Notes: a model not told the origin generated them from the sequence alone. Positions 7,301 to 35,860 are shown, numbered from the stretch's first letter. The stretch is 52,838 nucleotides of DNA from an uncultured bacterium (GCA_963745135.1 CAVUWW010000013.1:1-52838); one strand, 5' to 3'. Numbers and translations are program-made.

Positions 7301-9025
7301 ATGACCGACGACCAACTGCTTGAACAGCTCCAGCGGCAGAACCTGATCACGCCTCCTTTGGTCACGCGGCTCAAACGGGATGCTTTGATCAAGATGCGGC
7401 CGGTCGAATCGCTTATCGAGGACGAGCGCCTGGTGCCGAGCGAGAAGATCGCGGAATTGAAAAGCCAGATCATGAACGTGCCGTACCAGAAAGTGGATCC
7501 GGCGAGCGTGACCGCCGAGCTGCTCGAACTGATTCCCGAAGACACGGCGCGCACGTACGGCGTCTTGCCGCTCGCGTTGCAGGACAACCTGCTCGTGGCG
7601 GGCATGGTGCACCCGGATGATTCAAAGGCGCAGGAAGCATTGAAGTTCCTCGCGCGGCGCGGCCATTACAATCTGGGCGTGTACGTCATTTCCTTCGGCG
7701 ACTGGCAGGCGGTCTTGCGGAAATATTCGCCGTACCGCACGGAGATCGCGCGCGCGGTGCAGTCGCTGAACATCAAGGAGGGATCGGCAATGCAGAAGTC
7801 GGTGAGCCTGGAGGACGCGATGGCGGGTGATGAGGCGCCGGTCATCCGGATCGTCGCGGACACACTGAAGGAAGCGGTGTTCAGCAAGGCGTCGGATGTC
7901 CACATCGAGCCGCAGGAAAATTCCGTGCGCGTTCGGTTCCGCAACGACGGCGACCTGCACCAAGTGGCGTCGCTCCCGCCGGAGCTTGGCCAGCCGGTCA
8001 TCTCGCGGGTGAAGGTGCTCTCCCAAATGAAGATTGACGAGACGCGCACGCCGCAGGACGGCCGCTTCCGCTCGCGCATTCTTGACAAGGACATTGATTT
8101 CCGCGTCTCGACCTTCCCGACGCCGCTCGGCGAGAAAGTGGCGATCCGCGTGCTTGACCCGGCGACGGGGCTGAAGGATTTTTCGAAGTTGCCATTCCTC
8201 TTTAGAAACGCGGAAATCGTGAAGGAGGGGCTCGAGAAACCATACGGGATGATTCTGATCACGGGGCCTACCGGCTCCGGAAAAACGACGACGCTCTATG
8301 CGTTCCTCCAGCAGATGAACAAGGAGGACGTGAATATCGTCTCACTTGAGGATCCGGTGGAATATTTCGTCGCGGGCGTGAACCAGTCGCAGGTGCGGCC
8401 GGAGATCGGCTACGACTTTGCGTCGGGCTTGCGCGAGATTGTGCGGCAGGATCCGGACATCATCATGGTCGGTGAGATTCGCGACGCCGAAACCGCCGGG
8501 CTCGCCGTGCAGGCGGCCTTGACCGGCCACATCGTGCTCTCGACTTTGCATACCAACAACGCCGCCGGCGTCATCCCGCGCCTCACGGATTTAAAAGTGG
8601 AACCATTCCTACTGCCAGTGTCGTTGAATTTAATGATCGCACAGCGCTTGCTTGGCGTTTTGTGCGACAACTGCAAGGCGGCGGACGTGGCGCCGGAAAG
8701 CGTGCAGAAAATAATCAAAAGCGCGCTCGCGAACCTGCCCGAGGAAGTTACCAAGGAATTTCAGGAGCCATACAAGACCTATCATGCGAAGGGTTGCAAT
8801 GTTTGCAAGGGCAAGGGCATTCTCGGCCGGACCGCGATTTACGAGGCGTTCCACATGAGCCCGCAAATGGAGGAGCTGATTGCCGCCGGGACGCCGACAG
8901 TCCAGAAGATCATGGCGGAAGCGAAGCGGCAGGGTATGCTCACGCTGCGGCAGGACGGCGTGATTAAGGCGTTGCGGGGGATCGTGTCGATCGAGGAGGT
9001 GGCTAGGGAAACGGAGGAAGTGTAG
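7301..9025 (+). CDS. pilB: type IV pilus assembly ATPase PilB (GspE family)
   Basis: 574 aa with Walker A GPTGSGKTTT, a GspE N-terminal domain and a tetracysteine motif CDNC...CNVCKGKG. Confidence 0.9.
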   Translation: MTDDQLLEQLQRQNLITPPLVTRLKRDALIKMRPVESLIEDERLVPSEKIAELKSQIMNVPYQKVDPASVTAELLELIPEDTARTYGVLPLALQDNLLVAGMVHPDDSKAQEALKFLARRGHYNLGVYVISFGDWQAVLRKYSPYRTEIARAVQSLNIKEGSAMQKSVSLEDAMAGDEAPVIRIVADTLKEAVFSKASDVHIEPQENSVRVRFRNDGDLHQVASLPPELGQPVISRVKVLSQMKIDETRTPQDGRFRSRILDKDIDFRVSTFPTPLGEKVAIRVLDPATGLKDFSKLPFLFRNAEIVKEGLEKPYGMILITGPTGSGKTTTLYAFLQQMNKEDVNIVSLEDPVEYFVAGVNQSQVRPEIGYDFASGLREIVRQDPDIIMVGEIRDAETAGLAVQAALTGHIVLSTLHTNNAAGVIPRLTDLKVEPFLLPVSLNLMIAQRLLGVLCDNCKAADVAPESVQKIIKSALANLPEEVTKEFQEPYKTYHAKGCNVCKGKGILGRTAIYEAFHMSPQMEELIAAGTPTVQKIMAEAKRQGMLTLRQDGVIKALRGIVSIEEVARETEEV

Positions 9026-14612: not shown

Positions 14613-14671
14613 GGGTATGGGGTATAGGGTATAGTGAAACCCTAAACCCTAAACCCTAAACCCTAAACCCT
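14613..14671. repeat. inverted array hairpin, GGGTATR x3 / ACCCTAA x5
   Basis: Sequence gggtatggggtatagggtatag-tg-aaaccctaa(accctaa)x3 accct. The ATG at 14672 abuts the right arm. Confidence 0.9.
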
Positions 14672-15277
14672 ATGCAACGCCAATCTCCACAATCCGGCCA
14701 GTCCCTCATCGAGCTTCTCGTCGCCATCGGCCTCTTCTCTATCCTCTTTGCCATTGCGGGCGGGGGATTCGTGAACGCGCTCCATGCCCAGAACCAGGTT
14801 TCGGCGGAGATGGCGGCGGAAAGCAACGTCGGCATCGCGATTGAGGAGATGGCGCGGGAGATGCGGACCGGCTACCTTTTCTGCCACGATTTGAACGGCG
14901 TTTCAACGTGCGACACGAGCGATCCCTCGTACAATCGCCACTGCACATTCGATGCGGCAACCCAACTGCTCACCTGCTCCGACCTTGAATATTACGACGC
15001 GAACGGCGAGAAAATCGATTACGTCCTGAAGGGCGGCGTCCTGGAACGCGGAGACAACGATGCGTACCAGCCGATCACGGGGGATAATGTGACCGTGCGC
15101 TCGCTCTCATTCGTCCTTCACGGCAATACGGAAGGCGACCATTGGAACCCGCGGATCACCGTCACGATCGGCATTGCGCCGAACAATTCGGGCGTCTCAT
15201 GGAACACGGTTGACTTCCAGACCACGGTGAGCGCAAGGGAGATTGATTGCACGGCGGGAGCGAGCCCGAGCTGCTGA
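14672..15277 (+). CDS. pilin-like protein (PilW-like minor pilin)
   Basis: N-terminus MQRQSPQSGQSLIELLVAIGLFSILFAI. Confidence 0.75.
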   Translation: MQRQSPQSGQSLIELLVAIGLFSILFAIAGGGFVNALHAQNQVSAEMAAESNVGIAIEEMAREMRTGYLFCHDLNGVSTCDTSDPSYNRHCTFDAATQLLTCSDLEYYDANGEKIDYVLKGGVLERGDNDAYQPITGDNVTVRSLSFVLHGNTEGDHWNPRITVTIGIAPNNSGVSWNTVDFQTTVSAREIDCTAGASPSC

Positions 15278-15363
15278 AATCCTTAATCCTTAATCGTTAA
15301 TCCTTGACTAAAAATTTCGATTCCCTAGCGTTGTAATTGTTTAAGGATTAAAGATTAAGGATT
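15278..15363. repeat. inverted array hairpin, CCTTAAT / ATTAAGG units, between convergent genes
   Basis: Left arm aatccttaatccttaatcgttaatcctt, right arm aaggattaaagattaaggatt. It exactly fills the gap between stop 15277 and stop 15366. Confidence 0.8.
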
Positions 15364-15365
15364 GT

Positions 15366-16478
15366 TCAAATCTCCATCGTCCCATCCGCTTCCAGTTTGT
15401 ATTTTTTCTTTCTTAAAAACGCCATATATCCCGCGGCGCCGATCATGGCGGCGTTGTCGAGGTTGTATTTGAAATCGGGGACGAGAAATTGCACGCCAAT
15501 GAGTCCGGCCATGCGCTCCATGCTTTTTCGGAGTGCCTTATTCGCCGCGACGCCACCGCAGAGGATAATTGATTCCGCCGCGCATTCTTCAGCGGCTCGG
15601 CGTGTTTTCGCGACGAGCACGTCGATGGCGGCCTGTTGGAAGGAAGCGGCAACATCTGAGAGGCGGGAGGCGGGAGAAGGGAGAGGGGAGGAGAAATTCA
15701 TCTTCCGTCTTCCGTCTCCCATCTCCCTTAGGTAATAAAGAACCGCCGTCTTCAATCCCGAAAAACTAAAATCGTAATTCTTCTGGTCCAGCATCGGGCG
15801 CGGGAAAGTGATGGCGAATGGATTGCCTTTTTTCGCGAGTTTTTCGATTTCCGGCCCGCCGGGATAGGGAAGGTCGAGCAACCTCGCCACTTTATCGAAT
15901 GCCTCGCCGGCCGCGTCGTCGCGCGTCTCGCCGAGCCGCTCCCATTTCGAGAACGATTCCATGCGGAGCAAAATCGTGTGTCCGCCGGAGACGATGAGCG
16001 CGATCGCGGGGAACAGGGACGAGGGGCGAGTAGTGAGTAGGGAGGTATAACCCTTTAAGGATCTTGACGGAAGCAAGAAACTGTAAAGATGGCCTTCGAG
16101 ATGGTTCGCGCCGATGAGACGAGGGAGAGGAGAGAGGGGAGAAGGGAGAAGGGATTTCCGTATTTTTTTTGCAAATTCAATTCCTGTCCACAGTGCAGGT
16201 TCTAGCCCTGGTCCTACAGTAACTGCAATAATATCAATTTTTTTCTCCATCCCTCCTCCCTCCTCCCCTCTCAACCTCTCCCAAAGCAATGGCAAATTCT
16301 TCAAATGTTCCCGCTTTGCCAAATTCGGAACCACGCCGCCGAACGGTCGGTGGATCTTGATTTGCGAGGCGACCAGATTTTTTAAAATCTTAAAACGCGG
16401 ATTCTTCAATCCGCCGGAAGCGTCGAGCAAAGCGATGCCCGTCTCGTCGCAGCTCGTTTCGATGGAGAGGATTTTCAT
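15366..16478 (-). CDS. tsaD: tRNA N6-threonylcarbamoyladenosine synthesis protein TsaD
   Basis: 370 aa with KILSIETSCDETGIAL, VGPGLEPAL and NHLEGH. It carries low-complexity inserts encoded by purine/pyrimidine heptamer arrays. Confidence 0.9.
   Translation of the reverse strand: MKILSIETSCDETGIALLDASGGLKNPRFKILKNLVASQIKIHRPFGGVVPNLAKREHLKNLPLLWERLRGEEGGGMEKKIDIIAVTVGPGLEPALWTGIEFAKKIRKSLLPSPLSPLPRLIGANHLEGHLYSFLLPSRSLKGYTSLLTTRPSSLFPAIALIVSGGHTILLRMESFSKWERLGETRDDAAGEAFDKVARLLDLPYPGGPEIEKLAKKGNPFAITFPRPMLDQKNYDFSFSGLKTAVLYYLREMGDGRRKMNFSSPLPSPASRLSDVAASFQQAAIDVLVAKTRRAAEECAAESIILCGGVAANKALRKSMERMAGLIGVQFLVPDFKYNLDNAAMIGAAGYMAFLRKKKYKLEADGTMEI
15661..15728. repeat. intragenic inverted arrays (GGGAGAR / TCTYCCS heptamers) inside tsaD
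   Basis: Left arm aggcgggaggcgggagaagggagaggggaggag, loop aaattca, right arm tcttccgtcttccgtctcccatctccct. Translated in frame as ..GDGRRKMNFSSPLPSPAS... Confidence 0.75.
16121..16282. repeat. intragenic purine array and pyrimidine array flanking the conserved TsaD GPG core
   Basis: Purine array gagggagaggagagaggggagaagggagaaggga at 16121..16154. Pyrimidine array tctccatccctcctccctcctcccctctcaacctctccc at 16244..16282. Confidence 0.65.
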
Positions 16479-17016: not shown

Positions 17017-17091
17017 TACCGCCATCGGGATTCGAACCCGAGTTCCCGCCGTGAAAGGGCGGTGTCCTAGGCCGGGCTAGACGATAGCGGC
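17017..17091 (-). tRNA. tRNA-Glu (anticodon UUC)
   Basis: Hand-folded cloverleaf: acceptor GCCGCUA/UGGCGGU, anticodon stem CCGCC/GGCGG with loop CUUUCAC, T-arm UCGGG-UUCGAAU-CCCGA. CCA is not encoded. Confidence 0.85.
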
Positions 17092-17545: not shown

Positions 17546-18314
17546 ATGGCAAGAGTCATCGCGGTTTGCAACCAGAAGGGCGGTGTGGGGAAGACCACGA
17601 CCTGCACTTCACTCGGCGCTTACCTCGCGCTCGCCGGACGACGGGTGCTTTTGATTGACTTTGACCCGCAGGCGAACGCGAGCTCGGCTTTCGGGGCACC
17701 ATTATGCGAACGTGATGAAGAGCATCTATCACGGCATCATCGGTGCGGCGTCGCCCGAGGAGATCACGAAGCCGACCGCGATCTACAATTACCATTTGAT
17801 CCCCGCCGCGCCGCATTTGGCGGGGATGCTCATCGAGCTTGTGGGCGAGCCGGAGCGGGAATACTTTTTGCGGAAGTTCGTGAACCGCGTGCGGCACGAG
17901 TACGATTACATTCTGATTGACCTGCCGCCGAGCTTGAGCTTGCTCACCGTGAACGGGCTTGTCGCCGCGGACGAGGTCATCATCCCGGTTCAGGCGGAGT
18001 ATTACAGCTTGGAGGGCATCGGGCAGCTGCTCGAAACGATTGAGCTTATCAGGAATAATTTGGGGCATCCGATCCGCGTTTCGGGCGCGCTGATTACGAT
18101 GTATAATAAGCGGGAGCACTTGAGCCGCGAAGTGGCGAAGAACCTACGCGACCATTTCCCGCATCGCGTGTTCGAAGTTGAGATTCCGCGCAGCATTGCG
18201 CTCGCTGAAGCCCCAAGCTACGGCATGCCGATCCTGCTCTACCGCCCGGATTCGAACGGTGCGGCGGCGTATAAAAAATTGGCGGAGGAAATTATAAGAG
18301 AAGAAAGGGCATAG
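17546..18314 (+). pseudogene. parA: chromosome partitioning ATPase ParA/Soj, interrupted by a +1 frame break
   Basis: [18 protein letters not shown] (deviant Walker A) is in one frame and [14 protein letters not shown]... to the end is in the +1 frame. Deleting one G of the GGGG run at 17693..17696 fuses them. Confidence 0.8.
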
Positions 18315-18358
18315 GGTGCAGAACTCTTAACCCCAGACCCTAAACCCCAGACCCTAAA
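18307..18358. repeat. inverted array hairpin, GGGCATAGGGTG / ACCCYAR units
   Basis: The loop gcagaactctt is shared with the element at 30484. The left arm overlaps the parA stop and the right arm abuts the parB ATG at 18359. Confidence 0.75.
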
Positions 18359-19414
18359 ATGCTAGGAAAAGGTTTGGAATCATTGATTCCCCAAAAAAGC
18401 GGCGGCAACGGCGACAATAACGACAGTCATGACGACGGGCAGATTTCCGTGCCGCAAGACGTGAATTCAAGTCTGGCGCCTGTGGATGAGCCGGAGGACA
18501 TGGGTCTCGGGTCTAGGGTCTCGGGTCTAGGGGAAGAGAAAAAATCAGAAACCCTAAACCCAAGACCCCAGACCCTAAACCCTAAGCCCGAACAAATTTT
18601 CGGTTCGATATTCCAGATTGAAGTTGACAAGATCTCGCCGAACCCGGACCAGCCGCGGCGGCATTTCGACGAGACGGCTTTGCACGACCTTGCGCGTTCC
18701 ATCCGCGAGTTCGGTTTTCTCCAGCCGCTCGTAGTCTCGAAAATCGAAAAGGAATCGCCGACGGGCATTGACGTCGAATACCAGCTCATCGCCGGCGAAC
18801 GGCGTTTGCTTGCGGCGAAATTGCTTGGCTTGCGGCTCGTGCCTGCCATTATCAGGAACGTCCATCTCGAGCGTGAAAAATTGGAGCTTGCCGTCATCGA
18901 GAACATCCAGCGCGAGGACTTGAATCCCATCGAGACCGCGCACGCGTTCCAGCGGCTGCAGGAAGAGTTTCGCATGACCCAGCGCGAGATTGCGGCGAAG
19001 CTCGGCAAGTCGCGGGAAGTTGTCGCGAATACCGTGCGGCTGCTCGACCTGCCGGAATATATCCAGGAGGCGGTCCAGAAAGGGGATCTGTCCGAAAGCC
19101 ATGCGCGCTTGCTGCTTTCGATCGGCGATCCGGGCGCGCAGAAAAGGTTGTTCGACGACATTTCCCTGAACCGCCTCACGACGCGCGATGTGAAGGAGCG
19201 CGTGAAGCAGATTGCAAAGCCACGCGAGCCGCGCGAAGGAGCGGAAATCTCGCCGGAGCTGAAAGCCATGCAGGAGTCATTGAGTTCAGCCCTCGGTGCG
19301 CCGGTCGAGATCCATAAAGGAGCGAACACCGGAAAGATCACGATTGTATTTTATTCGCAGGAAGAGCTGGAGAACATTTTGCAGAAATTGAAAAGCGGGG
19401 AGGGAAATCAATAA
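18359..19414 (+). CDS. parB: chromosome partitioning protein ParB/Spo0J
   Basis: 351 aa with N-terminal GKGLESLIP, ParB box ISPNPDQPRRHFDE and LIAGERRLLAAK. It carries an in-frame repeat-element insert. Confidence 0.9.
   Translation: MLGKGLESLIPQKSGGNGDNNDSHDDGQISVPQDVNSSLAPVDEPEDMGLGSRVSGLGEEKKSETLNPRPQTLNPKPEQIFGSIFQIEVDKISPNPDQPRRHFDETALHDLARSIREFGFLQPLVVSKIEKESPTGIDVEYQLIAGERRLLAAKLLGLRLVPAIIRNVHLEREKLELAVIENIQREDLNPIETAHAFQRLQEEFRMTQREIAAKLGKSREVVANTVRLLDLPEYIQEAVQKGDLSESHARLLLSIGDPGAQKRLFDDISLNRLTTRDVKERVKQIAKPREPREGAEISPELKAMQESLSSALGAPVEIHKGANTGKITIVFYSQEELENILQKLKSGEGNQ
18502..18589. repeat. GGGTCTM / ACCCTAA-type hairpin element inserted in frame inside parB
   Basis: Left arm gggtctcgggtctagggtctcgggtctagggg, loop, right arm aaaccctaaacccaagaccccagaccctaaaccctaagccc. 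Translated as GLGSRVSGLGEEKKSETLNPRPQTLNPKP. Confidence 0.85.
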
Positions 19415-34899: not shown

Positions 34900-34966
34900 G
34901 GGTATAGGGTCTAGGGTATGGGGTATAGGATACCCTAAACCCTAAACCCTAAACCCTAAACCCTAA
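34900..34966. repeat. inverted array hairpin, GGGTATR x4 / ACCCTAA x5
   Basis: Sequence gggtatagggtctagggtatggggtatagg-a-taccctaa(accctaa)x4. The secF ATG at 34967 abuts the right arm. Confidence 0.9.
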
Positions 34967-35860
34967 ATGTTAAACATCACCGGCAACAAAAAAATATGGT
35001 TCACGCTCTCCGGCATTTTGGTCGGCTTGGCCGTCATTGCGATGGTCGGCTTTGGCTTCAAGGAGAGTGCCGAGTTCAAAGGTGGCACGCTGTGGGAATT
35101 TTCGATCCCGAACGCGAATGTCTCGCTCACGGAAGTGCAGACGTTCTTCGCGCAGAATTTGAACGTCCCGGACGCACAGATCACCTTGGACACATCGAGC
35201 GGCGATTTTATGGCGCGGCTTGACGTGCTTGACGAGGCGACGCACCAGAAATTCGCGAGCATATTGCAGAGCCAATGGCCAACCTTCCAGGAGTTGAGCT
35301 TCCAGTCCATCGGGCCGTCGGTCGGCGCGTCGGTCGAGAAGAATGCGATTATCGCGATTATCCTCGTCATCATCGGCATCTCGCTCTATATCGCCTATGC
35401 GTTCCGCAAGACCTCGCGTCCGGTGAGCTCGTGGAAGTATGGTTGGATCACGCTCTTGACGCTCTTCCATGACGTTTCCATCCCGGCGGGCATGCTCGCG
35501 ATCCTCGGCCACTTTTTGAATGTCCAGATTGACACCAACTTCATCGTCGCGCTTCTCGTCGTGATGGGCTTCTCCGTGCACGACACGATCGTCGTCTTTG
35601 ACCGCATCCGCGAGAACCTGACGCTGAACCGTGGGAAGGAGAAGTTCGAGACGGTCGTGAACACGAGCGTGAACCAAACCCTCGCGCGTTCCATTAACAC
35701 CTCGCTCACGCTGATTCTCGTGCTCATTGCGCTTTATTTTGTCGGTCCCGCCGACCTCCAATATTTCGTCTTGACCTTGCTCGTCGGCGTCACGACCGGC
35801 ATCTACTCGTCCATCTTCATAGCGAGCCCGGCGCTGCTGCTCGTGAGTCCGAAAGAATAG
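34967..35860 (+). CDS. secF: protein translocase subunit SecF
   Basis: 297 aa with six hydrophobic segments and the motif HDTIVVFDRIREN. Confidence 0.9.
   Translation: MLNITGNKKIWFTLSGILVGLAVIAMVGFGFKESAEFKGGTLWEFSIPNANVSLTEVQTFFAQNLNVPDAQITLDTSSGDFMARLDVLDEATHQKFASILQSQWPTFQELSFQSIGPSVGASVEKNAIIAIILVIIGISLYIAYAFRKTSRPVSSWKYGWITLLTLFHDVSIPAGMLAILGHFLNVQIDTNFIVALLVVMGFSVHDTIVVFDRIRENLTLNRGKEKFETVVNTSVNQTLARSINTSLTLILVLIALYFVGPADLQYFVLTLLVGVTTGIYSSIFIASPALLLVSPKE

Follow-up and report, generated by a model that had tools for sequence, protein, structure and literature searches.

In-frame palindromic heptamer arrays in parB, tsaD and other housekeeping genes of a putative Paceibacteria genome

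To our knowledge, translated palindromic repeats in essential genes have so far been near-unique to Rickettsia. The palindromic elements of that genus (RPEs) occur between genes and also in frame within housekeeping genes, there at sites that are compatible with the fold of the protein (Ogata et al. 2000, 2002, as summarized in PMC10969869); in that summary they are approximately 100-150 bp long, follow a family consensus and encode a conserved peptide of approximately 30-50 aa. A second point of comparison is provided by the G-rich heptameric SSRs of Xanthomonas and Nostoc, of which each genome contains 70-75 convergent (inverted) pairs (Rehm et al. 2015, PMC4692102). The same paper reports these SSRs as under-represented in coding DNA and gives a single consensus unit for each genus (PMC4692102), and the STRR heptamers of Calothrix are a related case in so far as they are cited there. 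Short palindromic repeats of the MITE and REP/BIME (REPIN) kinds also enter genes, in-frame genic copies being known for ERIC, BOX and QMITE1 (PMC10969869). Finally, the tandem repeats of Borgs create intrinsically disordered protein regions, according to those passages of PMC9879509 that deal with them. A full-text literature search for comparable elements found no description in CPR bacteria, which is not proof of absence.

The DNA that we analysed (the window, 52,838 nucleotides in length) is contig C13 of a 753-kb metagenome-assembled genome with a G+C content of 53% (55 contigs, 77% complete; referred to here as G000). Judged by its tsaD relatives, G000 appears to belong to the Patescibacteria / Paceibacteria (Parcubacteria-type CPR). 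It was compared with a genome of the same genus (G001) and with further relatives that include G002, G003 and G010. Note that our gene calls were home-made and crude, and that matches were then inspected by hand.

The original prediction was that an 88-nt element of the GGGTCT/ACCCTAA type lies within the coding region of parB. This was borne out with respect to the arms, the loop and the open frame of the element. The features of this locus are as follows.

18359..19414, plus strand: parB, 351 aa (ORF list and Pfam)
18502-18589, plus strand: in-frame hairpin of parB, 88 nt, in the disordered N-terminal linker, frame open throughout
18502..18532, plus strand: left (G-rich) arm of the parB hairpin, GGGTCTC GGGTCTA GGGTCTC GGGTCTA GGGG, 4.4 units
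18533..18548, plus strand: loop of the parB hairpin, A-rich, AAGAGAAAAAATCAGA, encoding EEKKS
18549..18589, plus strand: right (C-rich) arm of the parB hairpin, AAACCCT AAACCCA AGACCCC AGACCCT AAACCCT AAGCCC, 5.9 units of the AAACCCT type
18303..18358, plus strand: hairpin in the parA-parB spacer, repeat family as for the parB hairpin, subfamily loop GGGTGCNGAACTCTTAACCC

The parB product consists of an N-terminal MLGKGLESLIP peptide, a linker of 70 aa, and the three Pfam domains ParB_N (aa 84-184), HTH_ParB (aa 186-286) and ParB_C, the C-terminal dimerisation domain (aa 298-345). The MLGKGLESLIP motif is kept in about 30 of 34 relatives and shares its frame with the ParB domain. Because this conserved peptide is in frame with the domain, translation must run through the hairpin, and would give M48-GLGSRVSGLGEEKKSETLNPRPQTLNPKP-77 between MLGKGLESLIP and ParB_N, which is exactly the peptide that had been predicted, and in the predicted place (between the GLESLIP motif and the ParB box). 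The frame is open, with departures from the repeat consensus at two positions: the third unit of the left arm is a C variant, read as GTC TCG, at a position where the consensus GGGTCTA would place an in-frame TAG, and the right arm has CAG where a consensus (ACCCTAA)n array would place an in-frame TAA. Among non-genic copies of the family, just approximately 17% of frames are open and 12 of 27 copies are closed in all six. The RNA of the parB hairpin is predicted to fold with -48 kcal/mol (z -4.96), and none of 200 shuffled sequences folded equally well. With at most one mismatch allowed, the window contains 21 copies of GGGTCTNGGGTCT, which is 190 times the 0.11 copies that chance would give.

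The left arm of the hairpin between parA and parB overlaps the stop codon of parA, and the right arm (18329-18358) reaches as far as the ATG of parB. The latter arm is complementary to the in-gene arm at 18502-18532, and the predicted ensemble is diffuse. (parA itself appears to shift its frame by +1 within a run of Gs.)

The second gene of the window for which in-frame arrays had been claimed is tsaD, and the coordinates given for those arrays proved right to within 1-10 nt by TRF and by repeat search. The features there, and the hairpins that flank the gene, are as follows.

15366..16478, minus strand: tsaD, 370 aa (Pfam), TsaD/Kae1 fold intact in the model
15660..15727, minus strand: tsaD site D, purine/pyrimidine heptamers, in frame; aa ~251-273, GDGRRKMNFSSPLPSPASRLS
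16122..16155, minus strand: tsaD site B arm, pyrimidine-rich on the coding strand; aa 108-119, KSLLPSPLSPLP
16156..16248, minus strand: enclosed core of tsaD, 93 nt, 31 codons, encoding the invariant IDIIAVTVGPGLEPALWTGIEFAKK
16249..16282, minus strand: tsaD site A arm, purine-rich on the coding strand; aa 69-77, LRGEEGGGM
15278..15363, unstranded: intergenic hairpin at the tsaD stop codon, which it abuts; AATCCTT x4 / TTAAGGA x3.3
[quoted passage not shown]

TRF resolved the arrays of site D into 15660-15691 (GAGGCGG, 4.6 units) with 15699-15727, and those of sites B and A into 16122-16154 (AGGGAGA, 4.7 units) with 16245-16267 (CTCCTCC). We judged the tsaD insertions against 29 relatives, 55 further orthologs and the TsaD of Thermotoga. 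Site D adds approximately 13-15 residues that are missing from most orthologs, including that of the same-genus genome G001, and site B has approximately 6-7 residues extra when compared to the majority of orthologs; the loops that hold the arrays are gaps in most orthologs, the Thermotoga protein included. Alignment with orthologs, which had been proposed as a means to delimit the inserts in both proteins, did so for sites B and D of TsaD. The ParB linker is hypervariable among all relatives (from about 35 to 150 aa), so that an insert is not delimitable there by protein alignment.

Sites A and B form a pair of a different kind. Their arms at 16132-16155 and 16249-16272 are 24 nt long, 92% complementary (22 of 24 positions) and spaced 93 nt apart, and in the sense of the mRNA the pair is predicted to fold with -82.5 kcal/mol (z -5.0). 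The score of this stem is 18, compared to at most 9 in 28 orthologs and at most 13 in 400 random placements within the gene; a conserved stem around the core was not found in these 28 relatives, and the stem is confined to G000. Since the two arms bracket an ancestral, invariant core of 31 codons, a single simple insertion is ruled out as their origin; probably one arm served as template for the second in a template switch. In G001 both sites are purine-rich, and site B of G000 resembles an inverted version of its counterpart. The idea that the tsaD arrays are low-complexity inserts beside conserved motifs therefore holds for B and D, which are net insertions at loops, and fails for the A/B pair in so far as the pair brackets the core and is not one insert.

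An AlphaFold model of TsaD, built from an alignment of 56 sequences, has a mean pLDDT of 89.6 and superimposes on E. coli YgjD/TsaD (4wq5_A) with a TM score of 0.92. In this model the inserts are coils of lowered confidence: mean pLDDT per 10-residue block is 71 (residues 71-80), 63 (251-260) and 56 (261-270), and it drops below 50 at 257-261 within site D. The modelled structure is thus in agreement with the suggestion that the inserts form surface loops, as it places them in coils of low confidence. Heptamer arrays with unrelated units occur at five shared loops in 13 of 56 Paceibacteria tsaD orthologs, and tsaD orthologs contain 0.32 arrays per ORF versus 0.0009 in shuffles; the loops of tsaD are recurrent sinks for heptamer arrays.

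The 31-codon core between sites A and B is itself unusual. Its GC3 is 0.11-0.17 versus 0.67 expected from the codon usage of the genome (z -6.1 to -6.7), such that only two genes of G000 are more extreme than tsaD, and its third-position identity to G001 is 0.31 versus 0.69 in a control block. No donor of the AT-rich core was found among the 29 relatives, the best nucleotide identity being 0.77. The AT shift may have been caused by local, AT-biased hypermutation while the loop is extruded, by selection that keeps the loop open, or by a patch from an unsampled donor.

We considered whether these elements are maintained as selected nucleic-acid structures, for instance in ribosome pausing, in mRNA half-life or processing, in competition between arms at the start of parB, or as a cruciform in replication or segregation. 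The stems of parB and of tsaD A/B are strong, the complementarity of the arms is maintained despite coding constraint, the third arm abutting the ATG of parB could in theory pair with the in-gene G arm, and the silent sites of the 93-nt tsaD loop are depleted of G+C as if the loop were kept unstructured. On the other hand, the linker of parB, which in G000 has a folding z of -4.6, has a z of 0.0 in G001, and a search for conserved linker structure in parB relatives found mostly no signal and a few cases with unrelated structure. At the site where G000 has GGGTCTN, the G001 linker contains other heptamer arrays (GGAGAAT). The A/B stem is found in G000 tsaD only, and the site D element hardly folds (-31.8 kcal/mol, z -1.9). 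Furthermore, the positions of the elements follow protein loops and not functional mRNA landmarks. No parS-like palindrome was found near the parB hairpin, the window as a whole having two weak matches elsewhere versus 1.2 expected by chance, and a comparison with Rfam returned just sub-threshold generic miRNA-hairpin matches in addition to a tRNA at 17017-17091. That the parB hairpin is not conserved, that site D is weak and that there is neither a parS site nor a known RNA family together make a selected RNA or DNA role a minor rival, and one that we regard as decidedly improbable.

To place the two genes in context we took a census of short tandem arrays in G000. TRF reported 1095 of them, 405 with a period of 7; after overlapping arrays were merged, 393 of 871 had this period. 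Arm pairs, that is, an array and an array of the reverse-complement unit within 200 nt, number at least 108, 83 of them with 7-nt units, and the heptamer arm pairs typically have 3-6 units (TRF) in elements that are here 58-95 nt long. The family to which the parB hairpin belongs, GGGT-N-T / ACCCTA-N, accounts for approximately 29 arm pairs in G000 (TRF), nearly all of them intergenic. Its loop sequences form common subfamilies, such as GGGTGCGGAACTCTTAACCC, which is found also as the parA-parB spacer. The order of the arms is 100% consistent inside every unit family of G000, and each arm is internally homogenised, with one systematic one-base mismatch per unit between arms. The invading sequences had been said to look like the intergenic hairpins in kind; this is so for the parB element, and the tsaD arrays belong to a different family from it, one of purine/pyrimidine units (GGGAGRN).

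Elements of this kind lie in frame in at least 11 Pfam-identified housekeeping genes of G000, namely parB, tsaD, topA, gltX, infB, lepA, ksgA, rluA-like (an RluA-type pseudouridine synthase), holB, iscS-like (an IscS-like desulfurase) and the gene for an M50 protease. (Two further in-frame hosts, mnmA and the gene for a solute-binding protein, were identified by eye.) When strict arrays were defined as those with at least three units and at most one mismatch per 14 comparisons, 56 strict lag-7 arrays were present in 36 of 478 well-scored ORFs, compared to none in codon shuffles and 44 in the remaining DNA. Lags of 6, 9 and 12, the classes expected of slippage within genes, were at the level of noise in ORFs. 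The copy in topA belongs, as does that of parB, to the GGGTAT/ACCCTA family, is 28 aa long and encodes GYRISGIGYGKSEKKLKSDYTLNPTPYTL. Hairpins of the purine/pyrimidine type are located inside ORFs in 9 of 10 cases (TRF-pair lists) and have a recurring peptide signature, EGGGRREEG...K...SPLPSPASRL, that appears in unrelated enzymes; the predicted insert peptides include SPLPSPASR and TLNPRPQTLNPK. The original observation is confirmed; its interpretation holds up for the most part, with the corrections given here, and extends genome-wide.

The composition of the in-gene units can be understood from the genetic code. Since 7 is not a multiple of 3, three or more units (21 nt) are read in all three phases, and a unit with a stop trinucleotide in any rotation therefore closes every frame. 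Units composed only of purines or only of pyrimidines are unable to form a stop on either strand, and for that reason they dominate in genes. Consistent with this, neither strand of the unit contains a stop in 12 of 17 hairpins in ORFs versus 4 of 31 intergenic hairpins, and among single arrays the ratio of stop-free to stop-containing units is 87:6 in genes and 52:55 between genes; this excess is partly built in, as an ORF cannot contain stops. The stop filter explains both the dominance of purine-only and pyrimidine-only units in genes and the unit variants at the critical positions of parB.

The distribution of units and sites among relatives bears on how the elements arose. The topA element is missing in all five relatives checked, G001 included, and the gltX element, together with a second gltX insert of 34 aa, is missing in G001 and other relatives. 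Along with tsaD site D, these are insert-free alleles of the kind that was to be sought in related genomes; note that the nearest genome available has just approximately 76-80% protein identity, so that these comparisons offer no recent empty site at the level of DNA. In a gltX loop that is shared by both species, G001 has GGAGAAT arrays and G000 has GAGGGAG arrays. Across genomes, (GGGTATN)3 occurs in 140 windows of G000, in one each of G001 and G002 and in none of two more genera; (GGAGAAT)3 occurs in 169 windows of G001 and in none of G000 or elsewhere; and (GGGAGRN)3 occurs in 84 windows of G000 and in 0-1 of three other genera. (The sole (GGGTATN)3 window of G002 falls in site B of its tsaD.) The species-specific units, the filled and empty sites, the common loops and the fixed arm order point to a process by which a family spreads within a genome and is replaced within the genus, and speak against independent local birth. 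The homogenised arms with their systematic mismatch indicate that amplification of units within an arm is fast as well.

According to a purely local alternative, a heptamer seed was expanded by slippage and the second arm was made by template switching (quasi-palindrome correction), with no copying between loci. This alternative would account for the fact that arms are homogeneous inside and mismatched per unit between each other, and also for the tsaD A/B arms, which flank an ancestral core and are complementary at 22 of 24 positions as if one had templated the other, and for the apparent inversion of G000 site B relative to G001, where both sites are purine-rich. The location of 9 of 10 purine/pyrimidine hairpins in ORFs fits too, as GAR and GGN codons could have seeded arrays there. 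It does not readily account for species-specific units that fill over 100 windows of a genome, genic and intergenic alike, for two G001 genes that have GGAGAAT where G000 has two other units, or for loop sequences that are common to family members and an arm order that is fixed. Moreover, selected slippage within genes would favour 3n units, and the corresponding lags are noise. We therefore consider a purely local origin unlikely.

We think it fairly probable that the in-gene elements are copies of species-specific, dispersed families of palindromic heptamer arrays that are translated as passenger low-complexity peptides. In outline, each arm consists of a few 7-nt units in tandem, and its partner arm is the reverse complement. 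The families fill intergenic spacers and would also land in, or be copied into, coding DNA. The copies that survive in genes would be those that keep the frame, place no stop in the frame that is read and occupy a permissive place such as a disordered linker or a surface loop, and these would be translated as passenger low-complexity peptides. The copy in parB, which derives from a stop-containing family, has unit variants precisely at the would-be stops. Following arrival, the number and sequence of units would shift rapidly within an arm by way of slippage and homogenisation. The open frames suggest that the inserts are translated, and the copies presumably bring no benefit, being neutral or selfish, and have presumably spread through some copying process.

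Three observations touch on the manner of copying. Neither a transposase nor another hallmark of transposition was found for these elements, which counts against the copying view. So does the presence of different units at matching positions of G000 and G001, in that old arrays could have been converted there instead of new ones having been inserted. The homogenised arms and the per-unit mismatch speak against pure copy-paste and point to local amplification as well or instead.

The inserts might alternatively be protein-level adaptations, in which new flexible linkers or disordered regions have been put to use, as has been proposed for Borg repeats in the relevant passages of PMC9879509, which provide a precedent. 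They do lie in linkers and loops, where they form low-complexity segments rich in G, R and E or in S, P and L. However, peptides of the EGGGRREEG...SPLPSPASRL type occur in unrelated enzymes, and it is the DNA palindrome that determines their sequence. In addition, the unit length is 7 nt and not 3n, and near relatives have these enzymes without the inserts. For these reasons adaptation at the level of the protein seems to us very improbable. An artefact, in which short repeats of a metagenome bin were misassembled or gene models are wrong, is suggested by the nature of G000 (a MAG of 55 contigs that is 77% complete) and by the frameshift in parA. It is extremely improbable, given that conserved essential genes stay open through every element with conserved flanks on both sides and that separate studies have yielded many independent MAGs in which the phenomenon recurs.

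How do the elements read as translated copies of dispersed families compare with the systems described at the outset? Like RPEs, they are dispersed, intergenic as well as in frame, add extra peptide segments, occur in a bacterium with a small genome, and vary in presence and absence from lineage to lineage; G000 has many dispersed palindromes, in-frame extensions with empty sites, and fold-compatible positions (in TsaD as modelled, and in the ParB linker). Unlike RPEs, at least as these are summarized in PMC10969869, the G000 elements are heptamer arrays of 58-95 nt that turn over within a genus; they are in another phylum, and one arm pair brackets host coding sequence. In our analysis the elements would accordingly not be filed as RPEs, as architecture and phylum differ and the likeness appears to be one of outcome alone. 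The likeness to RPEs that had been proposed thus stands as a parallel of outcome (PMC10969869) and not as membership of the RPE family. Here the RPE-like outcome is reached with a different kind of repeat and in a different phylum.

The SSRs of Xanthomonas and Nostoc share with the G000 elements the 7-nt unit, a preference for approximately four units, a genome-wide distribution and inverted pairs that are capable of forming stem-loops. In contrast to the single consensus unit per genus of those SSRs (PMC4692102), G000 has many families, and its arrays are not under-represented in coding regions (56 strict arrays in ORFs versus 44 elsewhere). MITEs and REP/BIME resemble the G000 elements in being short palindromic repeats without coding capacity and with occasional fusions to host ORFs. 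They differ in that the entire G000 element is an inverted repeat, terminal inverted repeats set apart from a body, as in MITEs, not having been found, and in that G000, at 77% completeness, has no match to the cognate Y1 (RAYT) transposase of REP/REPIN. As for the repeats of Borgs, the available account describes fast-evolving, lineage-specific, low-complexity protein segments, as in G000; that account concerns direct repeats only, whereas the elements of G000 have 7-nt units plus an inverted arm. Direct 3n repeats of the Borg kind do not stand out in G000 ORFs (units are 7 nt long, and lags 6, 9 and 12 are noise).

The Patescibacteria case suggests that translated palindromic repeats may be what generally follows when repeats proliferate in small, probably repair-poor genomes. 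The inserts inflate and distort alignments of CPR proteins, make frameshift-prone sites in essential genes, and mark loops of conserved enzymes that tolerate 7-30 extra residues. In addition, the species-specific units and the AT-shifted tsaD "loop" provide a handle on the process that generates the repeats or the mutations.

With respect to a possible source of the copies, the Y1 (RAYT) transposase family PF01797 had no match in G003 or G010, as in the 77%-complete G000, and had matches in G001 and G002. A universal rule whereby the G-rich arm comes first, as a model of 3'-end extension would have it, was rejected, as 24 unit families are G-first and 13 are C-first. A bolder proposal is that a trans-acting activity of Paceibacteria (a templated repeat-adding or hairpin-primed polymerase, or conversion) writes species-specific inverted heptamer arrays into many sites of the genome, among them essential genes, that the hairpins extrude in vivo, and that the loss of G+C at silent sites over 93 nt of tsaD would be the mutational footprint of extrusion; we hold this to be quite unlikely.

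The idea that low-GC3 patches generally go together with inverted repeats on their flanks was also considered and rejected, as no repeats flank the other extreme patches of G000 and several of them are wrong-frame calls. Other coding stretches that lie between inverted arms are depressed in GC3 as well, namely those in ksgA (z -3.35) and in the gene for the solute-binding protein (z -2.99), and the mean z for arm-enclosed coding stretches is -2.7 (n = 8, some cases having doubtful gene calls).

The dominant heptamer family (7-nt tandem units) of G001, a same-genus relative of the source genome G000, is (GGAGAAT)n, which occurs in 169 windows of that genome, in arrays whose longest reach about 14 units. 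Examples are as follows:

G001 C242:8905-9002, (GGAGAAT)n array
G001 C309:14344-14427, (GGAGAAT)n array
G001 C243:24865-24948, (GGAGAAT)n array

No (GGAGAAT)n was found in G000 or in three other genera. Two genes of G001 carry the repeat in frame, parB, where it is read as ENGGWRMENG, and gltX, where it is read as ENGAWRMEN. In G002, a genome of another genus, the sole GGGTAT-type array (C5:7744-7763) lies in frame in tsaD (KTLLAKPYTLYPK), where it occupies the loop corresponding to site B of the window tsaD, an in-frame array arm (16122-16155, minus strand).

Other elements and inserts were seen inside ORFs of G000. An ATTCGCA/TGCGAAT-family hairpin, with units of 8-9 nt, is apparently read in frame in an mnmA-like gene (C33:9643-10956; NANPRMACEYREYRGANTANKTRHSTAFYSQHSHTFANSHY), and in-frame tolerance therefore extends beyond the heptamer families. 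The gltX gene (C28:11546-13177) has a second insert of 34 aa at residues ~456-490 (KKSLSHPAFAAASAKQARESSPIDADSRQPEAGSRANR) that is not evidently a heptamer array and is missing in all five relatives checked. Within our crude ORF calls at C41:6557-7957 and 7954-8511 there are a palindrome with near-perfect arms of ~105 nt and two oppositely oriented elements of 95 nt (GGAGGAAGCGAAGGGAA...TTCCCTTCGCTTCCTCC), which together look like a distinct, larger mobile palindromic element.

Between tsaD and parA in the window lies a tRNA gene, and the parA coding sequence (17546-18314) is itself divided between two frames:

17017-17091, minus strand, tRNA gene (Rfam RF00005, 54.6 bits)
17692-17695, GGGG run in parA

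Given three G instead of four, the Walker-A N-terminus (ending ...SSAFG) joins the remainder perfectly. The break is thus either an assembly error at the homopolymer or real, as a +1 frameshift or pseudogene.

One arm of the intergenic hairpins is sometimes a perfect (AAACCCT)n/(TTTAGGG)n array:

window 14637-14672, perfect arm
window 34932-34967, perfect arm
G000 C25:1987-2020, perfect arm
G000 C44:4041-4075, perfect arm

This is the plant-type telomere repeat. The match is probably coincidental, and such arms could mislead screens for contamination or telomeres.
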